Source: a virus. From it: 64,000 nucleotides of DNA. A program made the position numbers and the translations under genes. The stretch's first letter is position 1. The number at the start of each line of letters is the position of its first letter. Where the stretch lies: the IMG/VR virus record IMGVR_UViG_3300043353_000042, positions 1-64,000 of that record. One strand, written 5' to 3'. Below the pieces are notes generated by a model. It was not told where the DNA came from, ran no database searches, and saw nothing but the letters and a program-made list of their open reading frames with translations. Shown here one piece after another: positions 11,530 through 63,981 of this stretch.

Positions 11530-12639
11530 ATGGGAAGCGCAAGGCAGCGTCACGACGATCGTGGTCGCGAGAAAGTGCAGTGCCGCGATTGCTCGCTTTG
11601 GTACCACCGACTCGATCTGCACGTCGCTTCGAGGCACGACGGGATCGATGCATATGCGTTGCGACACGTGGGCGCGCCATTGCTGTCAGAGAGTGCACGA
11701 CGAAAGGTAACGTCGGCGTCCGATGACCGCTCGTTCAAGTTTGGGATCGCGCGCATGGGCATGCGCGACAACGACGAATACTCGGCCCGCTATGTGCCGA
11801 CGCACGACGAAGACTGGACGCTAGGGGAGGTCGAACGCGAAGCGCTCGACGCGCTGGCGCTCGCGATCGAAGACGACGAAAACGTCCTAATTGTGGGACC
11901 ACCGGGGGTCGGCAAGTCGACGCTGGTCAAGGAGCTCGGGGCCATCACGAATACGCCCGTGCGCCGGCTTCCGTTCCGTGGAGACATGCGGGTTAGCGAC
12001 CTGATCGGCGCGAAGTCACTTTCGGTCGACGAGGCAAGCGGACAGTCGGTGACGAAGTACGAGCCCGGAGTGCTGCCCGATGCAGCGAGTCGTGGTCATT
12101 GGCTTCTGATTGACGAGATTGACGCGGGCCCGGCTGAAGTCATGTTCACGCTCTTTCCCGTCTTGGAGGCGAACCGCTCGCTCGTGTTGACGGCGGACAG
12201 GGGCGGTCAAGAAGTTGCTTTTGACCCGCGCTTTCGTTTCATCGGCACAGCCAACACGCTCGGATGGGGCGACGAGTCGGGTTTGTACGCTGGCACGTCG
12301 CCTATGAACGAAGCATTGCTCGACCGCTTCCACACGGTGATTATGCTCGGCTATCCTGATCCGTCGAGCGAAGTGCGTCGGCTCGTTCAGGTGTCGAGCA
12401 TCGCGGGCGGTATCGCTGAGAAGATGGTGGCGGCGGCGACCAAGATTCGCGAGGCGCAGCAACGCGACGCGATGGCGGCGAGCTTCTCACCTCGCCGGCT
12501 AATCATGTGGGCGCGCAAGGCTGTGCGGATGGGCGACCCGGTTCGGGCTGCGCGCTACACGGTGACGAACCGGCTGCCTCGTGACGAAAGCGTCTTTGTG
12601 AACGGGATCATTCAGCGCCACTTCGGAGGCGCGCTCTAG
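11530..12639 (+). CDS. AAA+ ATPase, MoxR/CobS-like
   Basis: Walker A LIVGPPGVGKST, Walker B WLLIDEIDAG. N-terminal Cys/His cluster CRDCSLWYHRLDLHVASRH. Confidence 0.7.
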   Translation: MGSARQRHDDRGREKVQCRDCSLWYHRLDLHVASRHDGIDAYALRHVGAPLLSESARRKVTSASDDRSFKFGIARMGMRDNDEYSARYVPTHDEDWTLGEVEREALDALALAIEDDENVLIVGPPGVGKSTLVKELGAITNTPVRRLPFRGDMRVSDLIGAKSLSVDEASGQSVTKYEPGVLPDAASRGHWLLIDEIDAGPAEVMFTLFPVLEANRSLVLTADRGGQEVAFDPRFRFIGTANTLGWGDESGLYAGTSPMNEALLDRFHTVIMLGYPDPSSEVRRLVQVSSIAGGIAEKMVAAATKIREAQQRDAMAASFSPRRLIMWARKAVRMGDPVRAARYTVTNRLPRDESVFVNGIIQRHFGGAL

Positions 12640-12640
12640 C

Positions 12641-14389
12641 ATGGCCAAAGTCTGTTCCGAGCTCGTCGGGTTGGCTGGTCCGTTCACGCGCATCGCGCGC
12701 GCGATGTCGGCTGAATGGGGCGTGCGCATCGTGCCATCGGGCTCGCGCTGCGACACCGACGGCGAGATGATTCGTATCCCGTTCACGGCCGACTTCTTGC
12801 CGCGCGAAATGCGACAGGCGCTGCACGGCATGCTCGATCACGAAGTGTGTCACGTGGCCGAAGAGCGACGACACCGGAAGATGTCGCGCGCCACACCGGT
12901 CGAGATGCTTCGCGCGGAAACCGACAAGCGTCTTCAGCTGCTATTCAACGTCGTCGAAGACGTGCGGATCGAGAAGCGCTACAGCAGAGAGTACGTCGGC
13001 GTGGCGCAGAATTTGGCCGTGCTGAACCTGCAGGCCGCGGGCGACTGGGCAGCGAAGAACCACGGCGCAGGATGGTGGAAGAAGTTTTCGGCTGCACTGA
13101 TCTTGATTGCGCATGGGCTTGACGCGACGTGGGCCGAAGACGAGTTCGGTGCCTACTTGCGCTTGGTCGGTGACGAGCTCGACCAAATGCGTAGAGGTGT
13201 CGGCGAGTGGGGCGATGCGTCGCTCGACGTGGCGCGACGCATCTTCGACAAGGTGAAGCAGAAGCACGAAGACGCGAAGCCGAAGCCGCCGAAGAGCGAC
13301 GAGAAGAATGACGACGAAGGCGAGGGGGGCGACGGCGACGAAGGCGAAGAGAGTGACGGCAAAGGCGACGAAGAGAACCCCGACGACGAGCCTGATAGCG
13401 CCGACATGCTCGAAGCGATCCGCAAAGGAATCGAAGATTACGTCGTACACGACGCGGTCGCGAATCACCGCTATGTGCCGCACCCGAAGGCTCAAGCGCT
13501 CGACGCAGTCGGTCAGGCCGAATCGAACTTGGGGGTATACACGAGCGCGCGCGCAGAGGTGTTACCGCAGATCCGCGTGCTGCGTCAGAAGCAACGCGCG
13601 CTCGTGTCGGCATGGGCTCGCAGGCGCGTGCGCCCGGGGCTCGACCGTGGCGATATCGACGAGCACGTGCTCGCGGGCGTGCGCACGGGCGAAACCGACC
13701 TATTCTCAGAGTTGACGCGAAAGCGTGTTTTGAACACGGCGATCACGGGGCTCGTCGACTTCTCCGGATCGATGGGCGCCGATAACCGGATGCCGGACAA
13801 CGGCTCCTACTACGCGCTGCGCACGGCGGTCGCGCTGGCGGAGTCGTGGTCGGCGCTGGGAATCGCGAACGAGTGGTTAGGCTTCACAGTGCAAGATCCG
13901 GTGTTGACCGGCATCACGATCGAAGACCTCGCCTCGCATTACTTCTGCAGGCCGCCGCTGCAGCACATCGTGATCAAGGCGTTCGGCGATACGATGCGCG
14001 AGGCGTGCGCGCGCTTCGGCGGCATCAAGGGCAGTGGTAGCAACGTCGACGGCGAAGCTGTGATTTGGGCATGGCGACGGTTGATCGCGCGACGCGAGGC
14101 GCGCAAGATACTCGTCGTCATCAGCGACGGTCAGCCTGCGTCGTGGAATGGCTGCGTGGACAAGCAAGAGTTCGCGGACGATGTCGCCTTGCAAACGCAC
14201 TTGCGCGACGCGGTTCGCATGGTGACCAAGTCGGGTGTCGAGGTCATTGGCATCGGCGCAGGAACCGACTGCCCGCGCGCGTTCTACAACTCCGACACCG
14301 GGGCGAAGTTCGTTTACGTGCGCAGCATCGCGACGCTTGCGATGGACGTCTTCAGGGTCATGAAGCAGCGTGTAACAGATCTGGCATAA
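12641..14389 (+). CDS. VWA-domain protein, CobT-like partner of the AAA+ ATPase
   Basis: MIDAS motif VDFSGSMG, central acidic stretch, C-terminal VWA-like VVISDGQP. Confidence 0.65.
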   Translation: MAKVCSELVGLAGPFTRIARAMSAEWGVRIVPSGSRCDTDGEMIRIPFTADFLPREMRQALHGMLDHEVCHVAEERRHRKMSRATPVEMLRAETDKRLQLLFNVVEDVRIEKRYSREYVGVAQNLAVLNLQAAGDWAAKNHGAGWWKKFSAALILIAHGLDATWAEDEFGAYLRLVGDELDQMRRGVGEWGDASLDVARRIFDKVKQKHEDAKPKPPKSDEKNDDEGEGGDGDEGEESDGKGDEENPDDEPDSADMLEAIRKGIEDYVVHDAVANHRYVPHPKAQALDAVGQAESNLGVYTSARAEVLPQIRVLRQKQRALVSAWARRRVRPGLDRGDIDEHVLAGVRTGETDLFSELTRKRVLNTAITGLVDFSGSMGADNRMPDNGSYYALRTAVALAESWSALGIANEWLGFTVQDPVLTGITIEDLASHYFCRPPLQHIVIKAFGDTMREACARFGGIKGSGSNVDGEAVIWAWRRLIARREARKILVVISDGQPASWNGCVDKQEFADDVALQTHLRDAVRMVTKSGVEVIGIGAGTDCPRAFYNSDTGAKFVYVRSIATLAMDVFRVMKQRVTDLA

Positions 14390-17049: not shown

Positions 17050-17350
17050 CGAGCTGCGTCGATGGGCGCGCGGTGAGACGGTTGAGGGGCTTCCACCGAT
17101 CGCGCCGCGTAAGGAGGTCGAGCGCCCGAAGCTCGACCCTACGGGCCGGCTAAGCCGCAAGTACAAGCTGAATGCGGACGCGACCGACGCGCTCTTGCAG
17201 TTCGGCGCGTTTCGCGGGCAAGCGCTGTCGGTGCTCGTTGCCACGGCGCGCGGGCGCAAGTACCTCGCTTGGATCCTCGATAGGGATTTCGACGACGACC
17301 TGAAGTCAGTGTGTCGGTACCAAATGGAGCTACACAAGCGTGTCACATAA
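17036..17350 (+). CDS. hypothetical protein
   Basis: 104-aa ORF overlapping both neighbours. FGAFRGQALS...GRKYLAWIL weakly resembles small domains found near exonuclease/polymerase genes. Confidence 0.4.
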   Translation: MPTLDELRRWARGETVEGLPPIAPRKEVERPKLDPTGRLSRKYKLNADATDALLQFGAFRGQALSVLVATARGRKYLAWILDRDFDDDLKSVCRYQMELHKRVT

Positions 17351-20300
17351 GACCGAAGACTTCGTTCACCTGCACACGCACTCGGACATGTCACAGCTCG
17401 ACGGCTGCGGACGAATCGGCGACTACGTGAAGGTGGCCAAGGCGCGCGGGAATCCGGCGCTTGCGTTCACCGAACACGGGTCGATGCGCGGCTACTTGCA
17501 GCTGCGCAAGGAGGCCGAGAAGCACGAGATCAAACCGATCTACGGAATCGAGTTCTACGTTAGTCGCGACATGCACCGAAAGGGCCTGACCGACGACGAG
17601 AAAAAGACGCTTCTGACAGGGGTGAAGAAGAACGATCGGCGCACGACGCAGCGCGCGTACGAAGAGCGCGAGGGCATTCGCGATCGCTGGCACACGACGT
17701 GTTGGGCGCTCACGCAAGAAGGCATGCTGAACCTGCAGCGGCTGTCGAGCGCAGCCTATGTCGAAGGGTTCTACTACAAGCCGCGGGTCGACCTCGACGC
17801 GCTGTGTCGCTACAACGAGGGGCTTGCGATATCGACCGGCTGTCTGAACGGACCGGCGCACGACGGCTTCTTGCAGGGTCGAAGGCGCGACGCGATCAAC
17901 TTCGTCGACCGCTTGCGCGAAGCCTACGGCGACCGCCTCTATCACGAGATTCAGCCGCACGCGATCGCCGATCAGGCGCGCGTGAACGAGTTCGAGCTGA
18001 CGCTTCGTGAGCGCACGGGCGGCAAGCTTCTCGCCACGCAAGACGCGCACTATGTGAACCCCGAAGACGCCGACGCACACGACCTGCTTTTGTGTATCGG
18101 CACGGGCGCGAAGGTGAGCGACGTCGACCGCTTCCGGTTTGACGGCGACGAATTCTATTTTCGAACACGGGCGCAAATGCGCGACGCCTTCATCCGACAC
18201 CACGGCTACCTGCGAAAGTCGCACATCAGGGAAGCGCTCGACTCGACGATCGAGCTCGCTGAACGCAGCGACGTCAAGATCGAGATCGACTACATGCGGG
18301 CGCTTCTGCCAACGCCCGGCATGCCGAAGAAGTACGACGGGGACGAGTTCGCCTTCTTGAAAGACATTTGCCTCGATGGCTGGACGTGGCGCGGCATCCC
18401 TGCACGCGCTCGCTCATACGCGTACAAGCACGGCATCGGCGCGGGCGATGCGCTCGGACGCTATGCGACGCGGCTGAAGACCGAGCTCACGGCACTGAAG
18501 CGCCAGCGCTTGATTCTGTATTTTCTCGTCGTGCGCGACCTGTACGCGTTCGCGCGCAAAGAACAGATCTTCTGTGGGCCGGGTCGCGGAAGCGCGGGCG
18601 GGTCGCTCGTCGCTTACTTGCTCGGCATCACATCGATCGATCCGATCGAGCATGGCCTTCTGTTCGAGCGCTTCATCAATCCGGATCGCCACGACCTGCC
18701 CGACATCGATATGGACTTCGAAGACTCGCGACGTCGCGAGGTGATCGACTACCTCGTCGGCAAATACGGCAAGGACAAGGTGTGTCAGATCGCGACGGTC
18801 GGCCGGCTGTCCGGCAAGAGCGTCTTGCGCGACGTGTCGCGCGTGCTCGGTGTGCCGTTGCCCGAAGTGAATGCGATCAGCCCATCGATCCTCGAACGGC
18901 CGGACGGGCACCCGCGCGAATACAACACGCTCGAAGACTCGTTCAACGAGTTCGACGCATGCAAAGCGTTCGACAAGCGCTTCCCGAAGGTCCGCAAGTT
19001 CGCCTCGAAGCTCGAAGGCATGGCGAAGACGCTCGGTATCCATGCCGCGGGCGTCGTCGTCAGTCCGACAACGTTGACCGATTTGATCCCGCTCGAAATC
19101 CGTAAGCACAAGGGCGAAGACATCATCGTCAGCGCGATCGACATGAACGAGATCGCATCGGTCGGGCTCGTGAAGCTCGACGTGCTCGGCTTGCGCACGC
19201 TGACCGTGATCCGCGATTGCGTCAACGCAGTGAAGGAACGACACGAAGTCGCGCTCGACATGGAGCGGATCGAGATGAACGATCCGAAGGTGCTCGAACG
19301 TTTCACGGGGCACGACTTCGCGGGCGTGTTTCAGTACGACACCCCATCGGCGTACAAAATATGTGCCGACGTGATCTTCGAAGACTTCGAAGACATCGCA
19401 GCCATGACAGCGCTGAACCGCCCGGGCGCGACGCGGTCTGGCTTGGCCGAGCGCTACCTCGTTCGCAAGAAGGACGCGAGCAAGCGCGACGAGGTCGACT
19501 TTCACCCGATCATCAACGCGATCTGTGCCGACACGCTCGGTGTCATTGTCTATCAGGAGCACGTGATCAAGATCTTCACGGAGCTCGCCGGCTTCTCGCC
19601 CGGTGTCGCTGACGGGCTGCGTAAGGCCATCGGCAAGAAGAAGGCAGAAGAGCTCAAGGCCGCGCGTGTCGACTTCGTAGCGGGCTGCGAGAAGCTGCAC
19701 GGCATAGCGCCGAAGGTCGCGAACAAGATCTTCGGAGCGATCGAAGCGTTCGGCGCATACGGCTTCAACAAGAGCCATGCCACGGCGTACGCGACGATCG
19801 CGTATTGGTGCCAGTTCTTGAAGGTCTACTATCCGACCGAATTTTACTGGGCGCTCCTGCGCAACGAACCCGATCGCGCGCACCTGAAGGCGCTCGCTAA
19901 AGAGGCCAAGCGGGCAGGCATGCAGATCCTGAACCCGCACGTATCGTTCAGCCGTGACGTGTTCTCAATCGATCCGGACGGCAACATTCGCGGGTCGCTC
20001 GTCGACATCAAGGGCGTCGGCAAGGGCGCCGCTGCGACGGTCATGCAGTGTCAGCCGTTCAAGAGCTTTCTCGACTTCGCGCAACGGGTCGATCGGCGCC
20101 GCTGCAATCGCGGCGTGGTCGTCGTGCTGATCAAGGCGGGCGCGTTCGAGGGCTTGATCCCGAATCAGAAGTTTTTCGAAGAACACCTCGACGAGCTGTG
20201 GCGCTCGCTCACCAAGAAGCGCGCACGACGCGAAGCGATCTACGACTTTTGGGCGCGCGCGAAGGAGGCCGAAGACTACACGGCCGAAGAGCGCATGCTC

Positions 20301-21155
20301 GTCGCGGCGAAGGTCAATCCGCTCGCGTTCGGCGAGCACCCGCTCGACGCGTACCGCGAGTTCATGGCCGACCATGTCGGCGTCGAGCTGACGCGCATCG
20401 ACGCGCAGTCGATGGCAGAGCTCGACGGGGAATCGGTGTACGTGGCCGGGCTACTACTCGACGCGCGCGTGCAACAGATCGGTGACTTCCACACGGGTGA
20501 CTTGCCGACCGAGCTCGAACGCAAGCGCATGTTTTGGGGCGCGCGCTATGCCAACGTGAACTTGGAGTGTGACAGCGGCGAGAACTTTCGCGTGCGCTTC
20601 GACTTCGACATCTTCGAGGCGCATCGCGAGCTGATCGAAGCCGACTCGGGTACGCCAATCATCGTGCACGCGACGGTCGACGCGAAGTACAACCGGCTGA
20701 AAGCGCACTTCGCGATTGACCTCGAACGCTACCGCGTGGCTGCGCGCGCTGGCGAGCAAAGCGACTTCTGGAATCGCATCGTCGCGGGCGAGCATCCTGC
20801 GCGCGACTACCCGTGGCCGACACCCGAGCTCGCCAAGAAGCGCCGTTTCAATGGCCGGCTACTGCGCTCCGGAACGGGCATGTTCACGGGCATCGTGACG
20901 CACGTGCGGCGCAAGTTTGACGTGCGCGGTGAAGAGATGGCTTTTTTCGGCCTTTTGGGCGAGCGGGGATTCGTCAACGTGATCTCGTTTGCCTCGCAGT
21001 GGCATGCGATCCGCAAGATCGTGAAGCGAGGTCGCATGCTTACGATGCCGCTTGATAAGTCGACGGATTCCGAAAGAGGAATAGCGTTTTTCTTCAACGG
21101 CGGAAAAGTTCGGCACTTGAAAAAACATTCAGCGGACTGGGCGCCAAGCCCGTAG
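17340..21155 (+). CDS. dnaE: DNA polymerase III alpha subunit
   Basis: 1271 aa. PHP domain FVHLHTHSDMSQLDG. Palm/fingers blocks GPGRGSAGGSLVAYLLGIT, PDIDMDF, LVKLDVLGLRTL, YGFNKSHATAYA. Confidence 0.95.
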   Translation: MSHKTEDFVHLHTHSDMSQLDGCGRIGDYVKVAKARGNPALAFTEHGSMRGYLQLRKEAEKHEIKPIYGIEFYVSRDMHRKGLTDDEKKTLLTGVKKNDRRTTQRAYEEREGIRDRWHTTCWALTQEGMLNLQRLSSAAYVEGFYYKPRVDLDALCRYNEGLAISTGCLNGPAHDGFLQGRRRDAINFVDRLREAYGDRLYHEIQPHAIADQARVNEFELTLRERTGGKLLATQDAHYVNPEDADAHDLLLCIGTGAKVSDVDRFRFDGDEFYFRTRAQMRDAFIRHHGYLRKSHIREALDSTIELAERSDVKIEIDYMRALLPTPGMPKKYDGDEFAFLKDICLDGWTWRGIPARARSYAYKHGIGAGDALGRYATRLKTELTALKRQRLILYFLVVRDLYAFARKEQIFCGPGRGSAGGSLVAYLLGITSIDPIEHGLLFERFINPDRHDLPDIDMDFEDSRRREVIDYLVGKYGKDKVCQIATVGRLSGKSVLRDVSRVLGVPLPEVNAISPSILERPDGHPREYNTLEDSFNEFDACKAFDKRFPKVRKFASKLEGMAKTLGIHAAGVVVSPTTLTDLIPLEIRKHKGEDIIVSAIDMNEIASVGLVKLDVLGLRTLTVIRDCVNAVKERHEVALDMERIEMNDPKVLERFTGHDFAGVFQYDTPSAYKICADVIFEDFEDIAAMTALNRPGATRSGLAERYLVRKKDASKRDEVDFHPIINAICADTLGVIVYQEHVIKIFTELAGFSPGVADGLRKAIGKKKAEELKAARVDFVAGCEKLHGIAPKVANKIFGAIEAFGAYGFNKSHATAYATIAYWCQFLKVYYPTEFYWALLRNEPDRAHLKALAKEAKRAGMQILNPHVSFSRDVFSIDPDGNIRGSLVDIKGVGKGAAATVMQCQPFKSFLDFAQRVDRRRCNRGVVVVLIKAGAFEGLIPNQKFFEEHLDELWRSLTKKRARREAIYDFWARAKEAEDYTAEERMLVAAKVNPLAFGEHPLDAYREFMADHVGVELTRIDAQSMAELDGESVYVAGLLLDARVQQIGDFHTGDLPTELERKRMFWGARYANVNLECDSGENFRVRFDFDIFEAHRELIEADSGTPIIVHATVDAKYNRLKAHFAIDLERYRVAARAGEQSDFWNRIVAGEHPARDYPWPTPELAKKRRFNGRLLRSGTGMFTGIVTHVRRKFDVRGEEMAFFGLLGERGFVNVISFASQWHAIRKIVKRGRMLTMPLDKSTDSERGIAFFFNGGKVRHLKKHSADWAPSP

Positions 21156-21175: not shown

Positions 21176-21529
21176 ATGGCAGGTATTCATGAAATCGCAA
21201 AAGCAGCCGGACTGAAAGCCGACGTAGTCACAGACGTGTTCGAGGCTGTGTTTCAGCTCGTCCGCTCCGGTGAGTCGGTTCGCGTGTCGGGCTTTGGGTC
21301 GTTCGACAAGAAGACGTTTCCGGGCCGCACGGTGAAATCCCCTGTGATCAACGAGGGTGCGCCGATCACGTTCGGCGAGTCGTATCGCATTGCCTTTCGG
21401 CAAAGCGATCAGGCCAAGCGTCGGCTGAACATGTCGCGCAAGAAGCGCGAGGCGAAGCGGGCCGCGGCGGCGGAAGCGGTCGAGCAAACAAAGCGGAAAA
21501 AGAAGAAGGTCAAGAAGGGTCGCAAATGA
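21176..21529 (+). CDS. HU/IHF-family DNA-binding protein with Lys-rich C-terminal tail
   Basis: VRVSGFGSFDKKTFPGRTVKSPVINEGAPITFGESYRIAFRQS arm motif. Tail KKREAKR...KRKKKKVKKGRK. Confidence 0.8.
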   Translation: MAGIHEIAKAAGLKADVVTDVFEAVFQLVRSGESVRVSGFGSFDKKTFPGRTVKSPVINEGAPITFGESYRIAFRQSDQAKRRLNMSRKKREAKRAAAAEAVEQTKRKKKKVKKGRK

Positions 21530-22176
21530 GCGAACAGACCGAATACGTCGAACGCTTCGCGCGCCAGCGGATCAAGGTGCAAGGCACGGTCGTCGATGTG
21601 TACATCATCGGCGACGGGGCCGAGCTTCCGATCGGTGCCGACCTGTCGGAAGAGATGGATCGCGTGTCGGCACAGCTCGCGTATTGGGGTTCGGTCGCAG
21701 CCGATGCACAGGCCGAGCTGACGCAGGTCGACGCGTGGTATCGGCGTTTTCGCGCGCAGACCTCGACCGAGATGCTGACCAGAGATCCGAAGGCGTCCGA
21801 GTGGAAGGTGCGCAACGCTGTCGAGGGCTCGGACGGCTTCATCAAGCACAAGGACGCTATCGCGCTGGCCGAGAAGAATCTCGGCGTGTGCGAGGCCATG
21901 GTGCGCGCGTTCGAGAAGAAAGCGAATCAGCTGCAGAGCAGGGGCGCGCGCGTGCGCTCGGAACTGAACTCGCAAGGCATGACGACGCCCGAGACGCCGC
22001 GCGAGGTCCGCGGCTGGAATCTCTCGGCGCGTGGCAGCGAGAAGGACGACGACGGGTATGTGTCAGCACCATCGGACGGGGTTCGGCGGCCGTCCACTGC
22101 AGACAAGATTCGCCGCATGGAAGAAATCAACGGTGCGCGCCCCAAAGGCAAGGCATCACGCAGCAAGGAGAGGTGA
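21526..22176 (+). CDS. hypothetical coiled-coil protein
   Basis: 216-aa ORF, ATGA-coupled to the HU-like gene. Sits between HU and SSB-like genes. Confidence 0.5.
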   Translation: MSEQTEYVERFARQRIKVQGTVVDVYIIGDGAELPIGADLSEEMDRVSAQLAYWGSVAADAQAELTQVDAWYRRFRAQTSTEMLTRDPKASEWKVRNAVEGSDGFIKHKDAIALAEKNLGVCEAMVRAFEKKANQLQSRGARVRSELNSQGMTTPETPREVRGWNLSARGSEKDDDGYVSAPSDGVRRPSTADKIRRMEEINGARPKGKASRSKER

Positions 22177-22181
22177 CTAGC

Positions 22182-23918
22182 ATGGGCGTCAACATGGATG
22201 CGATGCGCAAGGGCTACGACGAGCAACAGCGCAGCGGCGGCGACTATCTGAACTTCGAGGCAGGCGAAACGCTCTTGTACGTGCACCCGCCCTGTCGCGA
22301 CAACGACAAGAGCGCGCTGACCAAGGGCAAGAACTACGTCCCGGTCACGGTGCACTACGGCGTCGGCAAGAACAATCGCATGGTGATCGGGCTCGATCCC
22401 GAGACGAACCCGGTCGTCGAACACCCGTTCGTCGTGAAGGTGCTCGAAAAGCGTAAGGTGCAGCTCACGGGCAAGTGCCCGATGAAGAAAGCGCTCGACT
22501 CCGGAAAGACGTTTTCGGACGAAGAAGCCGACGAGTCGCGACCACAGACAAAGTATCTTTGGGGCGTGACGCCGATGGGCTTCCGCAAGAAGTCATCAAG
22601 CGATTGGCAGGAGCACGAGAAGCAGGGCGAGCCCACTGTCGCGATGGTCGGCAAGCAGATCTTCGACGGCATCATGGAGTGCTTTTTCGACAACGGCGAC
22701 ATCAGCGATCCGCGTGCCGCAGTGCTGATCCGTGTCGTCAAGACGGGCAAGAAGCGGCAGACGAAGTACGAAGTCAAAGTCGATCCTGAAACGGCGAAGG
22801 CGCCGCGCAAGCTGCCGAAGGCGGTGCGCGCTGCGATCGCGAAGGCGATGACAGAAGGCGGCGACTGCGATCTGTTTCGGGTCGTTGGAAACATGATCAA
22901 GTCGCCCGACGAGGTGACGGCGATCATCAAGGGCGTCGAGGTTGACGAAGACGGCGACGACGACACGGGAAAGGGCAAGAGCATGGGCAAGAGCGCCAAG
23001 AGCAAGGGCAAGAGCAAGGTCGACGACGACGAAGACGAGGTCGACGACGAAGAAGAGCTCGACGACGAAGACGAACTCGACGACGAAGACGACGACGAAG
23101 ACGACGACGAGCCGAAGGCCAAATCGAAAGACAAGGCCAAGGGCAAGAAGTCGGACGACGAAGACGACGACGAAGACGACGAAGACGACCTCGACGAAGA
23201 CGACGAAGACGACGACGAAGACGACGAGCCGAAGGCCAAATCGAAAGACAAGGCCAAGGGCAAGAAGTCGAAGTCGGATGAAGACGACGACGACGAAGAC
23301 GACGACGAAGAGGCCGACGACGACGACGAAGACGAAGACGACGAAGACGACGACGAAGAACCGAAGGCCAAGTCGAAAGACAAGGCCAAGGGCAAGAAGT
23401 CGAAGTCGGATGAAGACGACGACGAAGACGACGAAGACGAAGAGGCCGACGACGACGAAGACGACGAAGACGACGAGCCGAAAGCCAAGTCGAAGAAGAG
23501 CGACAAGGACAAGGCCGCCGCCAAGGGCAAAAAGTCGAAGTCGGATGAAGACGACGAAGACGAAGACGAAGAGGCCGACGAAGACGACGAAGACGACGAC
23601 GACGAAGACGACGACGAGCCCCCTGCGAAAGCGAAGAAGGGCGGCAAAGACAAAGCCGCTGCGAAGAAGGCCAAGGGCAAGAAGTCGGACGACGACGACG
23701 ATCTGGGCCTCGACGACCTCGATGAAGCACTCGCCGGGCTCGATGGCGACGACGAAGATGATGAAGAAACGCCCGCCCCGAAAAAGGGCGACAAGGGCAA
23801 GAAGAGCGAGGCCAAAGTGAAAGACAAAGGCAAAGCCGAGAAGGTCGAGGCCAAGTCGAAAGACAAGGGCAAGGCCAAGGCGAAAGACACGAAGCCCGCG
23901 AAGAAGGGCAAGAAGTAG
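22182..23918 (+). CDS. gp32-like ssDNA-binding protein candidate with ~330-aa poly-acidic/Lys-rich repeat tail
   Basis: ATG 22182 inside ORF 21684..23918, preceded by AGGAGAGG. N-terminal ~250 aa resemble an OB-fold SSB pattern. Tail has 5 units of D/E runs plus PKAKSKDKAKGKKSKS. Confidence 0.5.
   Translation: MGVNMDAMRKGYDEQQRSGGDYLNFEAGETLLYVHPPCRDNDKSALTKGKNYVPVTVHYGVGKNNRMVIGLDPETNPVVEHPFVVKVLEKRKVQLTGKCPMKKALDSGKTFSDEEADESRPQTKYLWGVTPMGFRKKSSSDWQEHEKQGEPTVAMVGKQIFDGIMECFFDNGDISDPRAAVLIRVVKTGKKRQTKYEVKVDPETAKAPRKLPKAVRAAIAKAMTEGGDCDLFRVVGNMIKSPDEVTAIIKGVEVDEDGDDDTGKGKSMGKSAKSKGKSKVDDDEDEVDDEEELDDEDELDDEDDDEDDDEPKAKSKDKAKGKKSDDEDDDEDDEDDLDEDDEDDDEDDEPKAKSKDKAKGKKSKSDEDDDDEDDDEEADDDDEDEDDEDDDEEPKAKSKDKAKGKKSKSDEDDDEDDEDEEADDDEDDEDDEPKAKSKKSDKDKAAAKGKKSKSDEDDEDEDEEADEDDEDDDDEDDDEPPAKAKKGGKDKAAAKKAKGKKSDDDDDLGLDDLDEALAGLDGDDEDDEETPAPKKGDKGKKSEAKVKDKGKAEKVEAKSKDKGKAKAKDTKPAKKGKK
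23095..23700 (+). repeat. coding tandem repeat, period ~117-141 bp, 5 units
   Basis: GAGCCGAAGGCCAA(A/G)TCGAAAGACAAGGCCAAGGGCAAGAAGTCG recurs at 23109, 23226, 23358; diverged copies at 23475 and 23616. Units separated by GAC/GAA runs. Confidence 0.9.
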
Positions 23919-24000
23919 TAGGTAGTTCCGCAGTGCTCTGTTGACCCTCGAACGATGTCGGGAACCGGGGCCGAGCCAGTACGGGCGGCCCCTTTCTTTT

Positions 24001-25077
24001 ATGGCCAAGAAGACCGCGAAGACCGCGAAGCGCAAGGCTCGACTCGACTCGCCGTCGGACGTGATTGCGGACTACCTCGCCGGCATGAAGGCCGACAAGG
24101 CCGTGACGAGTCCGGTGCGTGTGTTGAGCGATGTCGCGTATCGCAAGCGCGTGCGCGGCGTGTTGTCGACTCACTCGGCTACGCTCGACGCAGCGATCGG
24201 CCGCGGCGGGTTTCCGCTGTCGCGCGTGTCGATCCTGCACGGCAAGGAAGGGTCGGGCAAAACGACGATCGCGCTTCACCTGTGCGTCGAAGCGCAGCGG
24301 CGCGGCGGTGTGGCCGTGTTCCTCGACAAAGAACACAAGATGGATCCCGACTACGCGGCGAAGCTCGGTGTCGACCTGTCGCGGCTCGTGATGCCGCCGA
24401 CGCCGACCCTCGAAGACGTGATCACGTACATCAAGGCCACCATCAGGCGTGCGCGAGAGATTCGGAAGAAGACGAAGCGGGCCGTTCCATTCGTGATCAT
24501 CGTCGACAGCCTGAACGCCTGCAAGGCGTTCGAAACGCTGGAAACGCCGACGGGCAAGAAGCGCTACCCGACCGAGGCGCGCATATGGTCCGAAGAGCTG
24601 CCCGGGATCTGTGAAGCGCTTTCGAGTGAACACGTGGCGCTTGTGTTCGTGTCACAGGTGCGCAAGAAGATGAACGTCATGTTTGGCAGCGATGAAGAGA
24701 TGGCGGGGGGCAACGCGCCCCGGTTCTTCGCATCGCTGATCGTGTACGTGACGCGTGTTGGCACCGAGAAGGACGGCGAGAAAACGAAGGTTGGAAGCTC
24801 GATTGAAACCGAGTGCAAGAAGAATCAGATCGGGCCGCCGTTCCGCAAGGCGCGCTTCGCGATCTACTGGAATCGCGGCGTCGACTACGAGCACAGTCTC
24901 GTGCTGCAGCTCGAAGTGATGGGGCTCGTCAAAAAGGGAAAGCACAGCGCGCTGACCGTAGGCGGCATTGATCTCGGTCAGGGCCACACCGCGGCGGCGA
25001 AGACGATTCGCGAGCGGCCGAAGCTGCGCGCGAAGCTCGTCGAAGTGTTCTACAAGCGCATGGGTTGGGACACATGA
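24001..25077 (+). CDS. recA: RecA recombinase
   Basis: GGFPLSRVSILHGKEGSGKTTIALH (Walker A), AVFLDKEHKMDPDYAAKLGVD, Walker B VIIVDSLNA. ATG 24001 chosen. Confidence 0.85.
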   Translation: MAKKTAKTAKRKARLDSPSDVIADYLAGMKADKAVTSPVRVLSDVAYRKRVRGVLSTHSATLDAAIGRGGFPLSRVSILHGKEGSGKTTIALHLCVEAQRRGGVAVFLDKEHKMDPDYAAKLGVDLSRLVMPPTPTLEDVITYIKATIRRAREIRKKTKRAVPFVIIVDSLNACKAFETLETPTGKKRYPTEARIWSEELPGICEALSSEHVALVFVSQVRKKMNVMFGSDEEMAGGNAPRFFASLIVYVTRVGTEKDGEKTKVGSSIETECKKNQIGPPFRKARFAIYWNRGVDYEHSLVLQLEVMGLVKKGKHSALTVGGIDLGQGHTAAAKTIRERPKLRAKLVEVFYKRMGWDT

Positions 25078-33780: not shown

Positions 33781-34623
33781 ATGTCTGTGAAGCGTGGGAC
33801 CTTGTTTAGGTTCGATCCGGACGAGCTTATCGTCATCGGACTCGATACAAAGGACGGCCCGGAGCACGAATTGTGGGATGAACGGATTCATCTTCCGCTT
33901 GAAGAGTCGATGGTGATGAACATCATGACGTTTGGCGTGAAAGAGACGGTCACACTCCGTAAGGGGTCAAAGGGATACGAGGTCGTCAATGGTCGGCGTC
34001 GTGTTCTTCACGCTCGCGAGGCGAATAAGCGCCTCAAGAAGACGGGCGAACCACGTGTGCGCGTCCCTGCGACCGTCGAGTCGGGCGACGAAATGCACAT
34101 GGAAAAGCTCACAATTTCGCTAAATGAGATTCGGCGCGACGACGACACGCTCACAAAGGCCGAGAAGTGCATGCGACTGCTTCATCGCAACGGCGGAGAC
34201 TACAAGGACGCAGCCCTCGTCTTCGGAGTGTCGGTCGCGGCGATCAAGAATTGGGCCAAGGTCGCCGAGCTAACTCCGAAGGTGAAGAAGGCCGTAGCGG
34301 CGGGCGAGATAAGTGCTTCGGCGGCGGCGGAGCTTCACGGGCTCGATAAGGACGACCAGATCGCCAAGCTTGACAAGCTCGTCGGCAACGCCAAGGCAAG
34401 CGGACGGAAGAAGACCACGGTATCGAAGGTCAAAAAGGAGACGGGCCATCGGGTCACCGTGTCGAAGCGCGTGCTGTTGAAGATTGTCACCGATCAACAG
34501 CTGGCGACGAGCGTTCATGCAGAGATGCTCTCTGGGATAAAGCTCGCGCTGGGCGTGTACGTCCCGCCCGAGACAACGAAGCTCGGAAAGCTCCTGATAC
34601 AGGCGGGATTCAAGTACGACTGA
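33781..34623 (+). CDS. ParB/KorB-like DNA-binding protein, paralog 1
   Basis: ParB N-terminal arginine patch VVNGRRRVLHAREA. HTH-like VFGVSVAAIKNWAK. Confidence 0.75.
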   Translation: MSVKRGTLFRFDPDELIVIGLDTKDGPEHELWDERIHLPLEESMVMNIMTFGVKETVTLRKGSKGYEVVNGRRRVLHAREANKRLKKTGEPRVRVPATVESGDEMHMEKLTISLNEIRRDDDTLTKAEKCMRLLHRNGGDYKDAALVFGVSVAAIKNWAKVAELTPKVKKAVAAGEISASAAAELHGLDKDDQIAKLDKLVGNAKASGRKKTTVSKVKKETGHRVTVSKRVLLKIVTDQQLATSVHAEMLSGIKLALGVYVPPETTKLGKLLIQAGFKYD

Positions 34624-35999: not shown

Positions 36000-36133
36000 A
36001 CCAAAGCAGACCAACCGCGGAAAGTTTCTTCCGAGTCTGGCTTGCGAAATCTCGATCTTCGGGCCATCGATAAGCCTTGTGGCGCGTAACCTAGCCCGCA
36101 CACACGATGGAAGAACCCGAGGAGTCGGTAATC

Positions 36134-36994
36134 ATGGCAGCTGCAATTATGCCGGTAAAACGTGGAAATCTGTATCAGTTCGATCCCAACGAGCCAGTGA
36201 TTGTCGGACTCGACACAAAGGACGGGCCCGAACACGAGCTTTGGGACGAGCGGATCCGGCTGCCGCTCGAAGAATCCATGGTGCTAAACATCATGGCGGT
36301 CGGCGTCAAAGAGACTGTGATCTTGCGCCTCAACAAGGGGGCCTCGCGTTACGAGGTCGTCGACGGCCGTGGTCGCATTCGCCACGCTCGCGAGGCGAAT
36401 AAGCGCCTAAAGAAGCTAGGCGAAGAGCTCGTGTATGTGCCGGCGCTTCTCGAACAGGGCGACGAAACGCACATGGCCGGGCTCGCGATCTCGCTGAATG
36501 AGATTCGACGCGACGACGACACGCTCACAAAGGCCGAGAAGTGCATGCGGCTCTTGCAGCGCAATGGCGGCGATCACAAGGCCGCGGCGATCGTCTTCGG
36601 CGTGTCGGTCGCGGCGATCAAGAATTGGGCCAAGGTTGCCGAGCTGACGCCGAAGGTCAAGCGAGCGGTCGCGAACGGCGAGATCAGCGCGTCAGCGGCG
36701 GCCGAGCTGCACGGACTCGAAAAGGAGGCGCAGATCGCCAAGCTCGATAAGCTCGTCGGGCACGCCAAGGCGAACGGGCGCAAGAAGGCGACCACGGCGA
36801 GCGCGAAGAAGGAGACGGGCAAGCGTACCGCGGTGCCGAAGCGCGTCTTGCTGAAGCTCGTAGGCGACGAAGAGCTGTCTTCGGGCGTGCCGCCTGAAGT
36901 CATTTTCGGGATCAAGCTCGCGCTCGGCTCACACCTGCCCGGGGAAACGTCGAAACTTGGAAAGTTGCTTGTGCAGGCGGGTTTCAAATACTAG
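36134..36994 (+). CDS. ParB/KorB-like DNA-binding protein, paralog 2
   Basis: Largely collinear with paralog 1, with long identical DNA stretches. Arginine patch altered to VVDGRGRIRHAREA. GGAG lies 8 nt before ATG 36134. Confidence 0.75.
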   Translation: MAAAIMPVKRGNLYQFDPNEPVIVGLDTKDGPEHELWDERIRLPLEESMVLNIMAVGVKETVILRLNKGASRYEVVDGRGRIRHAREANKRLKKLGEELVYVPALLEQGDETHMAGLAISLNEIRRDDDTLTKAEKCMRLLQRNGGDHKAAAIVFGVSVAAIKNWAKVAELTPKVKRAVANGEISASAAAELHGLEKEAQIAKLDKLVGHAKANGRKKATTASAKKETGKRTAVPKRVLLKLVGDEELSSGVPPEVIFGIKLALGSHLPGETSKLGKLLVQAGFKY

Positions 36995-37136: not shown

Positions 37137-38060
37137 ATGACGACCACAACGCGCTTTCGCCCCATGCTCGCGCCGTCCAAGTCGATCGATCCGGCCACGC
37201 TGACCTACCCCGTTTTCGCGAGTCCCAAGTACGACGGGATCCGCTGCGTCATACGCGACGGGCGCGCCATGTCCCGGTCGCTCAAGCCGATCCCGAACAA
37301 GCACATACGTGGCGCGCTCGAAGCCCTCGGACCGGACGCGGAGGGCCTCGACGGGGAAATCATGCTGCCGTATCCGGCGAAGTTCCCCGCGGTCAGTAGC
37401 GCGGTCATGGCGTTCGACATGCCGCCCCCTGCAGACTGGTTTTTCGTCGTGTTCGATCGCGTGCCTTTGCTCGCGACCGAGCCGTTTTCGTCGCGCTCGA
37501 ACGACGTCAAGCGCACCGTCGAAAAGCACGCATGGCCGCACATCGTCGTGTGTGAACAGCTATGGATCGACGCGCGCGAAACGCTCGACGACTACGAGGC
37601 GAAGGCGGTCGAGGCCGGGCACGAAGGGGTCATGTTGCGCGCGTTCAATGGCCCCTACAAGTTCGGGCGGGCCACGGAGCGGGAAGGGTACCTGTTCAAG
37701 CTGAAGCGCTTCACAGACAGCGAGGCAGAGATCGTCGGTGTGCTCGAAATGCAGCACAACAACAACGTGGCCTTCGTCGGCGAGCTCGGACAGACGAAGC
37801 GGCGCACGCTGAAGGAAGGCAAGGTCGACGGCGGCGTGATGGGCAAGCTCGTCGTGCGCGACCTGAAGAGCGGCGTCGAGTTCAAGATCGGCACGGGCTT
37901 CGACGCGAAGCAGCGCGCGCTCTGGTGGCGCTGTCGCGACATCCTAATCGGCCGGGTCGTGCGCTACCGCTATCAGGAGCACGGCCAGAAGGACAAGCCG
38001 AGGATCGCGAGCTTCCAAGGCTTCCGAGATCGGCGCGACATGGGTCCGGTCGGCGAGTGA
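37137..38060 (+). CDS. ATP-dependent DNA ligase
   Basis: Adenylation motif I SPKYDGIRC (KxDG), motif IV EGVMLR, motif V LFKLKRF. OB-fold C-terminus. Confidence 0.85.
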   Translation: MTTTTRFRPMLAPSKSIDPATLTYPVFASPKYDGIRCVIRDGRAMSRSLKPIPNKHIRGALEALGPDAEGLDGEIMLPYPAKFPAVSSAVMAFDMPPPADWFFVVFDRVPLLATEPFSSRSNDVKRTVEKHAWPHIVVCEQLWIDARETLDDYEAKAVEAGHEGVMLRAFNGPYKFGRATEREGYLFKLKRFTDSEAEIVGVLEMQHNNNVAFVGELGQTKRRTLKEGKVDGGVMGKLVVRDLKSGVEFKIGTGFDAKQRALWWRCRDILIGRVVRYRYQEHGQKDKPRIASFQGFRDRRDMGPVGE

Positions 38061-62976: not shown

Positions 62977-63981
62977 TCACTTCCTGGCCTTCACGAGATC
63001 GATGATCTTCTGCACTTGCTCTTCGATCTGCATTGCAGCTTCGATCGATTTCACTTCGGGCTTGATGCCCTTGACGAGGCCTGCATAGTGCTTCTCTTGC
63101 ACGGCTTGCGAGTGACCGAGTTGTTTTGCCGAATGGAACGACGCAGCGGCGCCATAGATGCCCGGGGCATTCGTCAGGTAGGTCGAGCACGTTGAGCGCG
63201 CCATCTGGTATGTGAACTTAGCCGGCGCTCGGAACTGCTTGTCGTCGTCAGTGTCGTCGTCGCCGAAGCCATCTCGCAGGCGCTGGTTCGCCGCTTGCGC
63301 TTCGTCGTAGGTAACGCCAAAGACCGACCCCTTGCCGTTTGCTTTGCGGTGTAGCGTGAGCATCAGTTCACGCAACATCGGCGACACTTCGAAGCTGACG
63401 AAGCGCGCACGCTTCGTCTTCGTGTTTTCGGCCTGCAGTTTAATTTGGCCGACGACGACGCCGTCGAAGTCTTCATGGTCGAGGTCGACGTGCGTGCGCC
63501 ACTCGACTAGGCACAGCTCGTCGAGCCGCATGCCGGTCAGAAACGCGGCTGCGACGAATGGGGCGATCGCTACATAGCGCGCAGTCGAGCCCCCTGTTTC
63601 GTTTCGCGTCTTCTCGTTGCGGGTCAGCGCATAGACGAGTGAGTCGTGATGCATAGCGCATTCGAGCGTGTGCGCGATCTCTTTGCGCGACATGAACTCG
63701 GGATACTCGAAGGGCACTTCGTACTTCTTCAACGCGACGATCAGATCGTCGAGGTGCAACTTCGGCAAACGTTCGGCTGAGATCAGCCACGTCAACAAGG
63801 TTCCTGCGACGCGTAGGTCGCTGTTGACGGTGATGGTCGCACGACGTTTTGGCAGCTCAACGACCTCGCCTCGCTTCTTGCCCGGTGCGCATTGCTTCTT
63901 CGGCAGCTTCATTGCCCATGCTCGAAACGAGAGAAGCTCGGCTCGGGTGATCTTGTCGGGCGTGACGCGCTCCTCCTTCAC
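62977..63981 (-). CDS. int: tyrosine recombinase / phage integrase
   Basis: Box I LTGMRLDELCLVEW. C-terminal MARSTCSTYL...LGHSQAVQEKHY with the catalytic Tyr context. The 5' end is close to the window edge. Confidence 0.85.
   Translation of the reverse strand: MKEERVTPDKITRAELLSFRAWAMKLPKKQCAPGKKRGEVVELPKRRATITVNSDLRVAGTLLTWLISAERLPKLHLDDLIVALKKYEVPFEYPEFMSRKEIAHTLECAMHHDSLVYALTRNEKTRNETGGSTARYVAIAPFVAAAFLTGMRLDELCLVEWRTHVDLDHEDFDGVVVGQIKLQAENTKTKRARFVSFEVSPMLRELMLTLHRKANGKGSVFGVTYDEAQAANQRLRDGFGDDDTDDDKQFRAPAKFTYQMARSTCSTYLTNAPGIYGAAASFHSAKQLGHSQAVQEKHYAGLVKGIKPEVKSIEAAMQIEEQVQKIIDLVKARK

Follow-up and report, generated by a model that had tools for sequence, protein, structure and literature searches.

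A putative gp32-like single-stranded DNA-binding protein with a long charge-block tail from an uncultured phage

Coding sequence and layout of the protein

The viral record IMGVR_UViG_3300043353_000042 of IMG/VR, of which positions 1 to 64,000 were analyzed (this 64,000-nucleotide stretch is hereafter the window), carries a gene for a putative binding protein for single-stranded DNA (SSB) in which an N-terminal domain with the predicted fold of phage T4 gp32 is joined to a long, disordered tail of alternating acidic and lysine-rich blocks. The open reading frame (ORF) is real and its frame unbroken, starting with the ATG at 22182 and closing with a stop codon at 23916-23918, while the stop codon of the preceding gene lies at 22176. 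The product comprises an N-domain of 256 amino acids (aa 1-256), which matches the N-domain profile of its family and is close to neutral (net charge +3), and a tail of 322 aa (aa 257-578). The features of the gene are as follows.

22165..22173, + strand: Shine-Dalgarno-like sequence AAGGAGAGG, 8 nt ahead of the SSB ATG, as read from the sequence
22182..23918, + strand: full SSB coding sequence (gp32-like; 578 aa and a stop codon), with homologs found
22182..22241, + strand: N-terminal segment, aa 1-20, with a predicted helix at 5-18 and conserved M8-R9-K10, then G19-G20
22242..22949, + strand: core domain with predicted gp32 fold, aa 21-256
22950..23687, + strand: predicted disordered charge-block linker, aa 257-502
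23061..23698, + strand: tandem DNA repeat array coding the acid/lysine units
23688..23744, + strand: conserved tip motif DDDDDLGLDDLDEALAGLD, aa 503-521
23772..23915, + strand: lysine-rich C-terminal extension, aa 531-578 (48 residues)

Fold of the N-terminal domain

An AlphaFold2 model of the N-domain, built from 26 family sequences, reached a predicted local distance difference test score (pLDDT) of 89.4 and a predicted template modeling score (pTM) of 0.84. Searched with Foldseek against the PDB, the model gave six matches at E <= 1e-3, every one of them a chain from a gp32 structure (RB69 2a1k and 2atq; T4 1gpc and 8gme). The best match was the RB69 gp32 core (2a1k_A; E 7.6e-8, template modeling scores 0.54/0.62, 247 columns); T4 gp32 (1gpc) was matched at E 3.6e-7 and the T4 gp32-Dda complex (8gme) at E 1.8e-6, with the first unrelated fold appearing in the list at E 0.085. 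Among the predicted viral structures of BFVD, 70 matches were obtained at E <= 1e-3, many of which carry the name phage ssDNA-binding protein. A first reading of the DNA from sequence only (hereafter the sequence-only reading) had proposed a gp32-type oligonucleotide/oligosaccharide-binding (OB) fold for this domain, and both the model and the exclusive presence of RB69 and T4 gp32 among the significant PDB matches bear that assignment out, the absence of an OB fold not being what was found.

Sequence comparison is far less telling. Pfam searches with the full protein and with the N-domain identified no family at E <= 1, the gp32 (PF08804) and bacterial SSB (PF00436) families included; a search of NCBIfam with the SSB returned no match, and a sequence search of PDB chains, run both with the N-domain sequence alone and with a profile of the family, returned nothing meaningful. 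PHROG 1192, annotated as single strand DNA binding protein, matches aa 107-207 with E 1.7e-6, and hhalign comparisons with T4 gp32 and with the gp32 family alignment are weak, at a probability of 10-12% (11.6%, E 0.0026, for the gp32 alignment). Weak as they are, the hhalign alignments consistently pair the family's C99-P-V-x with gp32 C87-P-V-C90, W127 with W116 and GKQIFDGIM with GKKIWDKIN, and the family residues facing gp32 C87-P and W116 are conserved. Judging from the model, the relation of the family to gp32 shows mainly at the level of structure.

Two further local features invite comparison with gp32. Zinc is held in gp32 by H64, C77, C87 and C90; in the present family C38, H58, H81 and C99 are invariant or nearly so and may form a Zn site, with the window protein having CPMK at the position of the gp32 CxxC and several family members having CPVC or CAVC. 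At the N-terminus, the family consensus ...KMRxxYExQQKGGDF resembles the gp32 consensus MFKRK...LKGGxGF, a helix followed by KGG-x-F, and the segment spanning aa 1-20 is a candidate functional equivalent of the gp32 cooperativity (B) domain.

The charge-block tail and its DNA repeat

The composition of the tail (D108 K71 E50 A29 G20 S19 P9 L8 V4 T3 M1) gives it a net charge of -87 and includes neither arginine nor aromatic residues. Runs of D/E alternate with PKAKSKDKAKGKK-type lysine blocks. Six acidic blocks (aa 281-310, 325-349, 366-393, 410-432, 455-480, and 503-530) are present, the first five of which span 23-30 residues and carry -22 to -27 apiece. A basic block opens the tail at aa 262-279, and five more, beginning P-K-A-K or P-P-A-K and carrying +4/+5 apiece, start at aa 311, 350, 394, 433 and 480; the lysine blocks between acidic runs are 12-20 residues long, with lysine as their sole basic residue. 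Charge segregation exceeds that of same-composition shuffles by z = 19 (kappa ~0.56). In the full-length AlphaFold2 model, aa 257-578 are predicted to be disordered (pLDDT <50), bar a helix at aa 510-520. The sequence-only reading had described this region as a polyampholyte; alternation of acid and lysine blocks is indeed its pattern, but the implied balance of charge is not there, and a truer description is that of a strong polyanion with short lysine blocks interspersed.

In the underlying DNA, Tandem Repeats Finder detected arrays with periods of 117, 132 and 141 bp (scores 506, 571 and 337, respectively), confirming the five-unit repeat of 117-141 bp reported from sequence inspection, whose unit starts at about 23109, 23226, 23358, 23475 and 23616 agree with the sequence. 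Copies of the basic-block DNA at 23089, 23206 and 23338 are 90-95% identical, and codon use in the tail is homogenized, with GAC at 93% and GAA at 76% against 79% and 46% in neighboring genes. Because the GAC/GAA repeat lacks stop codons, long ORFs of 292-568 aa encoding poly-Ser, poly-Val/Phe or poly-Arg/Leu (such as a poly-Ser ORF at 22355..23911, - strand) extend across it in other frames and on the opposite strand (22355..24633); these are by-products and should not be called as genes. The possibility that the tail itself is a mis-called separate gene or the product of a frameshift was ruled out by the continuity of the frame and by the family-wide retention of the in-frame tip and lysine-rich end downstream.

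Conservation of the tail and its tip helix

Conservation among close relatives was assessed on a set made up of the window and three IMG/VR phages (L004-L006). The N-domains of the latter are 87-89% identical to that of the window, while their tails are ~54% identical, with 50-84 gap columns. Tail length within the close set is about 284-322 aa (284-308 in the three relatives), and all members keep the basic block at the start of the tail, four to five others that begin with P-K near the same positions, the tip and the long lysine-rich end; the basic blocks number 6-7 in the close set. The fraction of charged residues (0.67-0.74), the net charge per residue (-0.24 to -0.27) and the charge patterning (kappa 0.56-0.60, z 17-19 versus shuffles) are likewise maintained. 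Repeat units are closer to the other units of their own genome than to those of other genomes, which suggests homogenization within the repeat array. A pattern of this sort is what is usually seen when selection on a disordered region bears on bulk properties and not on sequence; it does not prove a need for the full length. The concern that the tail might be hypervariable noise among relatives holds for its sequence, but not for the number of blocks, the fraction of charge, the net charge per residue, the patterning or the tip motif, all of which are conserved.

Across the 179 complete family members for which tail statistics were compiled, tail length varies continuously, with a median of 164 aa, a 5th-95th percentile range of 70-284 and a full range of 11-395. 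The 322-aa tail of the window protein is the second longest of the 179; of the 25 longest-tailed members listed it has the most negative net charge (-87), and its 14 alternating blocks are the family maximum. Tails open with an acidic block in 172 of the 179 members and end in a basic one in 155, and 78 members have at least three acidic and at least three basic blocks. Charged tails are hence the rule in this family and the window gene is the extreme case. The sequence-only reading was right in calling a tail longer than the folded domain unusual, given that classical gp32 proteins total 291-308 aa, but a tail of this kind is not peculiar to the window gene. A sub-clade of the family (P0022-P0024; L018, L021, L022, L023) carries a cysteine-rich tail insert, CFGKDCxDDxECxACExxxxCxxxC, duplicated in L021, which from its sequence could be a small metal-binding module in place of part of the charged linker.

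The tip motif, supported by the predicted helix, by a family motif profile and by its likeness to gp32 C-termini, contains the sole predicted structure in the tail, the helix LDDLDEALAGL at aa 510-520. With a profile score of at least 8, the motif is found in 76 of the 179 tails, mostly between a preceding D/E run and a short K/R-rich end; its median distance from the C-terminus is 13 residues. Classical gp32 proteins end in ...D(L/I)D(D/E/S)LL(N/A)(G/D)L, examples being DDGDLDDLLAGL, DEDLDELLNGL and the T4 sequence DDTDLDDLLNDL. The motif of the window protein, DLGLDDLDEALAGL, resembles this gp32 tip (...DLDDLLxGL), but it has a 3-residue insertion and is internal, with at least 48 residues following it. 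In T4 gp32, the acidic C-domain binds the core at its ssDNA-binding surface or close to it, and deletion of residues 292-296, inside the tip, weakens this effect and yields an intermediate phenotype (PMC5892887); another amphipathic helix in the gp32 C-domain (V258, L262, F265) docks on the Dda helicase (PMC11551737). By analogy, the tip helix is most simply read as a partner-binding and autoinhibitory element equivalent to the gp32 tip.

Distribution of the family

A word-indexed search recovered 25 homologs of the SSB, all of them unnamed metagenome proteins, and an exhaustive profile search recovered 442 clusters (50% identity) at E <= 1e-3, of which 140 at E <= 1e-30. Twenty loci of the family were found in IMG/VR, on viral contigs of up to 116 kb. 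Queries with the N-domain and with a distant family member (P0170) using tblastn gave no match in 50,697 deposited phage records, and the family is therefore without a cultured representative in that collection. Pattern-based scans of GTDB species-representative genomes revealed no relative. The exact protein is absent from a collection of 15 billion proteins, and a 20-mer spanning the domain/tail junction had 0 viral matches and 15 metagenome matches, none of them encoding the SSB.

Gene neighborhood

The gene lies in a replication and recombination module whose order, DnaE-HU-orf216-SSB-RecA-SbcD-SbcC-RuvC, is kept in 22 related loci, down to 36% SSB identity. The principal neighbors in the window are listed below.

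17340..21155, + strand: DnaE-type DNA polymerase III alpha (PF07733, PF17657, PF02811, PF14579)
21176..21529, + strand: HU/IHF-like DNA-binding protein (PF00216, E 3.5e-8), in 18 of the 22 related loci
21526..22176, + strand: orf216, a conserved 216-aa ORF directly 5' of the SSB gene, with a homolog in the same place in 22/22 related loci
24001..25077, + strand: RecA/UvsX-like recombinase directly 3' of the SSB gene (PF00154, E 1.7e-49; phrog_97, E 1.5e-53)
37137..38060: ATP-dependent DNA ligase, just 3' of a ParB-HTH / DUF7119 pair

In each of the 19 related loci with DNA continuing beyond the SSB gene, the recombinase gene comes next downstream. The placement of the SSB gene between the HU-like and RecA genes, as first read, is correct for its downstream side, but the HU-like gene does not adjoin it, the conserved 216-aa ORF intervening (21526..22176). 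The HU-like protein is very basic and has an unusual K/R-rich C-terminal extension, RKKREAKRAAAAEAVEQTKRKKKKVKKGRK, ending RKKREAKR...KRKKKKVKKGRK. The orf216 homologs, of ~170-216 aa, share the core ...DM-DRVAAQMAYWG...DAxYRxWRA...EWKVK...KANxLQSKGAxxRxE...TGMxTP; no match to orf216 was found in Pfam or NCBIfam, and its PHROG matches are all of unknown function. T4 gp59, of 217 aa, is encoded upstream of gene 32. An identification of orf216 as a gp59-like helicase loader was rejected at the sequence level (hhalign probability 0.15%), and from its conserved position the orf216 product may be a partner, mediator or loader of the SSB. In a more distant phage (L001:9000-9960, + strand), the orf216 homolog has 320 aa and an acid/lysine tail of its own (…DEDDDDFEADE…EEAPKRRAKKASKKAGKK…DDEDEPPPVRRGKKKAKK…), and charge-block tails in this lineage are therefore not restricted to the SSB.

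No sigma-70 promoter was found by a scan around the SSB gene, and a terminator scan of the same region gave background level only. A GC-rich hairpin, GGGGCCG-N12-CGGCCCC followed by UUUCUUUU, occupies 23967..23999 (+ strand), after the SSB stop codon and ahead of the ATG of RecA at 24001; although shaped like a terminator (free energy -20 kcal/mol), it does no better than shuffles (z -0.97).

The window also encodes a DnaB-type helicase, a primase-like protein, a flap endonuclease and the ligase listed above, together with an N6/N4 methylase, a uracil-DNA glycosylase and a dCTP deaminase for DNA modification and nucleotide metabolism. A MoxR/CbbQ-type AAA+ ATPase (CobS-like) paired with a CobT-like VWA protein lies within the replication module (11530..14389, + strand), and two paralogous ParB-HTH / DUF7119 genes are found 1.5 kb apart at 33781..34623 and 36107..36994 (+ strand). 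The search for a host yielded no assignment; no tRNA was found in the window, and its DnaE is at most ~34% identical to that of any deposited phage. A relative with a 104-kb contig (L003; JGI 3300031257) has inteins (PF14890) in both DnaE (1990 aa) and RecA (636 aa), with an HNH domain in the RecA intein. At the edge of the window, an integrase-like ORF (62977..63981, - strand; phrog_1, E 7.6e-10) suggests that the phage is temperate or integrative, although no copy as a prophage turned up in GTDB representative genomes. The window is the replication region of a large, uncultured and probably temperate phage.

Discussion

The gene studied here is probably that of a phage replication and recombination SSB, a remote structural relative of gp32 with a greatly expanded C-terminal domain serving autoinhibition and partner recruitment, a reading in which we place fair but by no means full confidence. 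The protein appears to keep the three-part plan of gp32, with an N-terminal basic helix, an OB core of modeled gp32 fold that would bind ssDNA, and a disordered acidic C-terminal domain bearing a tip helix. The likeness of this conserved helix to the C-terminal tip of gp32 argues for an ordinary gp32-style role in autoinhibition and partner recruitment, rather than for the more exotic roles considered below.

The linker between core and tip has grown by tandem duplication to ~250 residues, made up of five acidic runs of ~25 residues and their lysine blocks. In the mechanism that we propose, the N-terminal basic helix would mediate cooperative contact with the neighboring monomer on ssDNA. In the free protein, by analogy with gp32, the polyanionic tail would fold back onto the cationic DNA-binding cleft, blocking the binding of duplex DNA or RNA and making that of ssDNA salt-gated. 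Cooperative binding to ssDNA would then expel the tails, generating a long anionic brush around the filament that could present the tip helix across a wide range (contour length ~100 nm) and allow it to recruit and exchange the RecA/UvsX-like recombinase, DnaE, the DnaB-type helicase, the orf216 product and SbcCD. Part of the tail's charge is neutralized by the lysine blocks and the lysine-rich end, which would lessen tail-tail repulsion, make weak contacts with nucleic acids, or do both.

Several observations weigh against this proposal. On the functional side, we infer ssDNA binding, cooperativity, autoinhibition and partner binding alike. The sequence homology to gp32 is marginal, with no PF08804 match at E <= 1 and an hhalign probability of 10-12%, and the second Cys of the gp32 CxxC is missing (CPMK), so that a Zn site may be of another kind or lacking altogether. 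Whereas the tip of gp32 is the very C-terminus, that of the window protein lies internally, ahead of a lysine-rich extension, and partner binding may therefore differ; moreover, the motif reaches a score of at least 8 in just 76 of the 179 members. Lastly, the gp32 analogy accounts neither for the lysine blocks nor for the need of ~250 extra residues.

Comparison with characterized systems helps to delimit what is new in this protein. With T4 and RB69 gp32 (PF08804; 1gpc, 2a1k, 8gme), the only significant matches in the PDB, it shares the core fold and the order of N-terminal helix, core and disordered acidic C-terminal domain; its acidic amphipathic tip is similar (LDDLDEALAGL in the window, DLDDLL[NA]GL in gp32), and its gene is likewise set among replication and recombination genes and adjoins that of a RecA/UvsX-type recombinase. 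It departs from gp32 in a C-terminal domain of 322 aa and net charge -87, against ~48 aa in proteins that are uniformly 291-308 aa long; in the lysine blocks, the internal position of the tip and the 48-aa lysine-rich end; in having CPMK for CxxC and no Pfam gp32 match; and in the replicase of its module, which is of the DnaE type and not a family-B polymerase.

Bacterial SSB proteins, such as the OB tetramer of E. coli with its tip DDDIPF, resemble it in joining a DNA-binding core to a variable disordered linker and an acidic/hydrophobic tip that recruits partners. In E. coli SSB the linker abounds in Gly, Gln and Pro and is not known to carry charge blocks. It comprises 56 residues (PMC7145534) and tunes cooperativity and condensation (bioRxiv 10.1101/797431; PMC7145534; PMC12143593). 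The window protein differs from these SSBs in its gp32-type core, which has no PF00436 match, and in a tip that is of another sequence and not C-terminal, its C-terminus being ...KPAKKGKK instead of DDDIPF. Closer in fold are the gp32-fold SSBs of Herelleviridae and other cultured phages (the 408-aa SSB of Lactobacillus phage Lb338-1; BFVD matches of 320-480 aa), the tails of which are also far longer than that of T4; the Lb338-1 gene likewise lies near a UvsX-like recombinase gene, but its product has a Q/P/A-rich tail without acid/lysine blocks or an LDDL-type tip. Eukaryotic D/E-repeat tails, such as that of HMGB1, similarly join long D/E runs to a DNA-binding domain, and are known to autoinhibit through intramolecular electrostatics and to speed up target search (PMC10250230). 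Those of the HMGB1 type, however, belong to binders of duplex DNA and consist of a single acidic run of ~30 residues, with no five-fold lysine-block repeat and no evolutionary relationship to the protein described here. The window SSB stands apart from all characterized SSBs in how large its C-terminal domain is (322 aa, -87), in its periodic acid/lysine blocks and in the combination of an internal tip with a lysine-rich extension, while remaining an extreme form of the known gp32 design, for which the evidence requires no new principle.

Among the alternatives, the one that fares best is that the added length is largely neutral, a flexible acidic spacer and a tip being sufficient and the remainder arising by slippage or unequal recombination in GAC/GAA-rich DNA and being tolerated rather than selected. 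The slippage-prone tandem repeats with units 90-95% identical, the homogenized codons (GAC 93%, GAA 76%, versus 79% and 46% in neighbors), the continuous spread of tail lengths from 11 to 395 aa and the much faster divergence of the tail relative to the core (~54% versus 87-89% identity) are all in keeping with it. Against this, the four close relatives retain nearly the same block number and spacing, the same charge parameters and a tail length within about 6% despite the turnover of sequence, 172 of the 179 tails open acidic and 155 end basic, and the tip and lysine end downstream are in every case still read in frame, leaving us to regard neutrality as unlikely.

A second possibility is that the tail acts as a scaffold, coacervating with lysine-rich partners (the K-tailed HU-like protein, its own lysine blocks, DNA) and gathering replication and recombination enzymes in a membraneless compartment. 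RPA, like E. coli SSB, has been described as forming such compartments. Condensates of E. coli SSB form through its disordered linker and tip (bioRxiv 10.1101/797431; PMC12143593), which counts in favor of this view, as do the strong and conserved charge segregation of the tail (kappa ~0.56-0.60, z 17-19 versus shuffles), its multivalency, with the family maximum of 14 alternating blocks, the lysine-rich end of the neighboring HU-like protein (RKKREAKR...KRKKKKVKKGRK) and the similar block tail of the L001 orf216 homolog. The tail is nonetheless a strong polyelectrolyte (-0.27 per residue, net -87) that is expected to be expanded and self-repelling, and this net negative charge makes self-coacervation unlikely unless polycations are abundant, an objection that does not extend to coacervation with polycations. 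Moreover, all its basic residues are lysine, arginine and aromatic residues, the usual stickers, being absent; HU is lacking in 4 of the 22 related loci; and no other protein of the window has extensive charge blocks. We rate a scaffolding role as rather improbable.

No greater credence is given to a broader proposal in which the -87 tails on ssDNA would form a polyanionic brush acting as a built-in nucleic-acid mimic, one that nucleates a charge-driven compartment with lysine-tailed phage proteins, sequesters host DNA-binding or defense proteins, or does both, with block period and patterning as a functional code. Were this doubtful proposal true, the protein would be the first viral SSB with a block-copolymer module as its main innovation.

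The known phage DNA mimics, Ocr and ArdA, are folded proteins with a fixed spacing of carboxylates. That the poly-D/E tail works chiefly as a mimic or decoy of the phosphate backbone, soaking up host nucleoid proteins, restriction or defense nucleases and RecBCD-like enzymes, or as a histone-chaperone-like module toward basic proteins, would suit its acidic runs of 23-30 residues and -22 to -27 apiece, the known electrostatic competition between D/E repeats and DNA for DNA-binding domains (PMC10250230) and the very basic HU-like protein encoded two genes upstream, but it is highly unlikely given that the tail is predicted to be disordered (pLDDT <50 bar helix 510-520) and lacks a folded, B-DNA-like carboxylate scaffold of the Ocr/ArdA type, that no link to defense or anti-defense was seen in the window, and that attachment to an SSB core in a replication and recombination module, with a conserved gp32-like tip, argues for a role in replication.

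The reading of the protein as a gp32 relative with an expanded C-terminal domain has practical and biological implications. In isothermal amplification and PCR enhancement, gp32 serves as a working reagent. A protein of gp32 fold whose tail is an extreme polyanion may offer useful solubility and reduced binding to duplex DNA. Beyond such uses, the family constitutes a natural experiment, in which a gp32-like tip is held away from the core by ~70 to 400 residues of charge-patterned linker, and tails of this kind allow the effects of linker length and patterning on autoinhibition, cooperativity, recruitment and condensation to be asked. Lastly, a large and hitherto unannotated family from uncultured phages gains a functional annotation as gp32-type SSB, and forms part of a widespread lineage of uncultured phages with a DnaE-based replication module.

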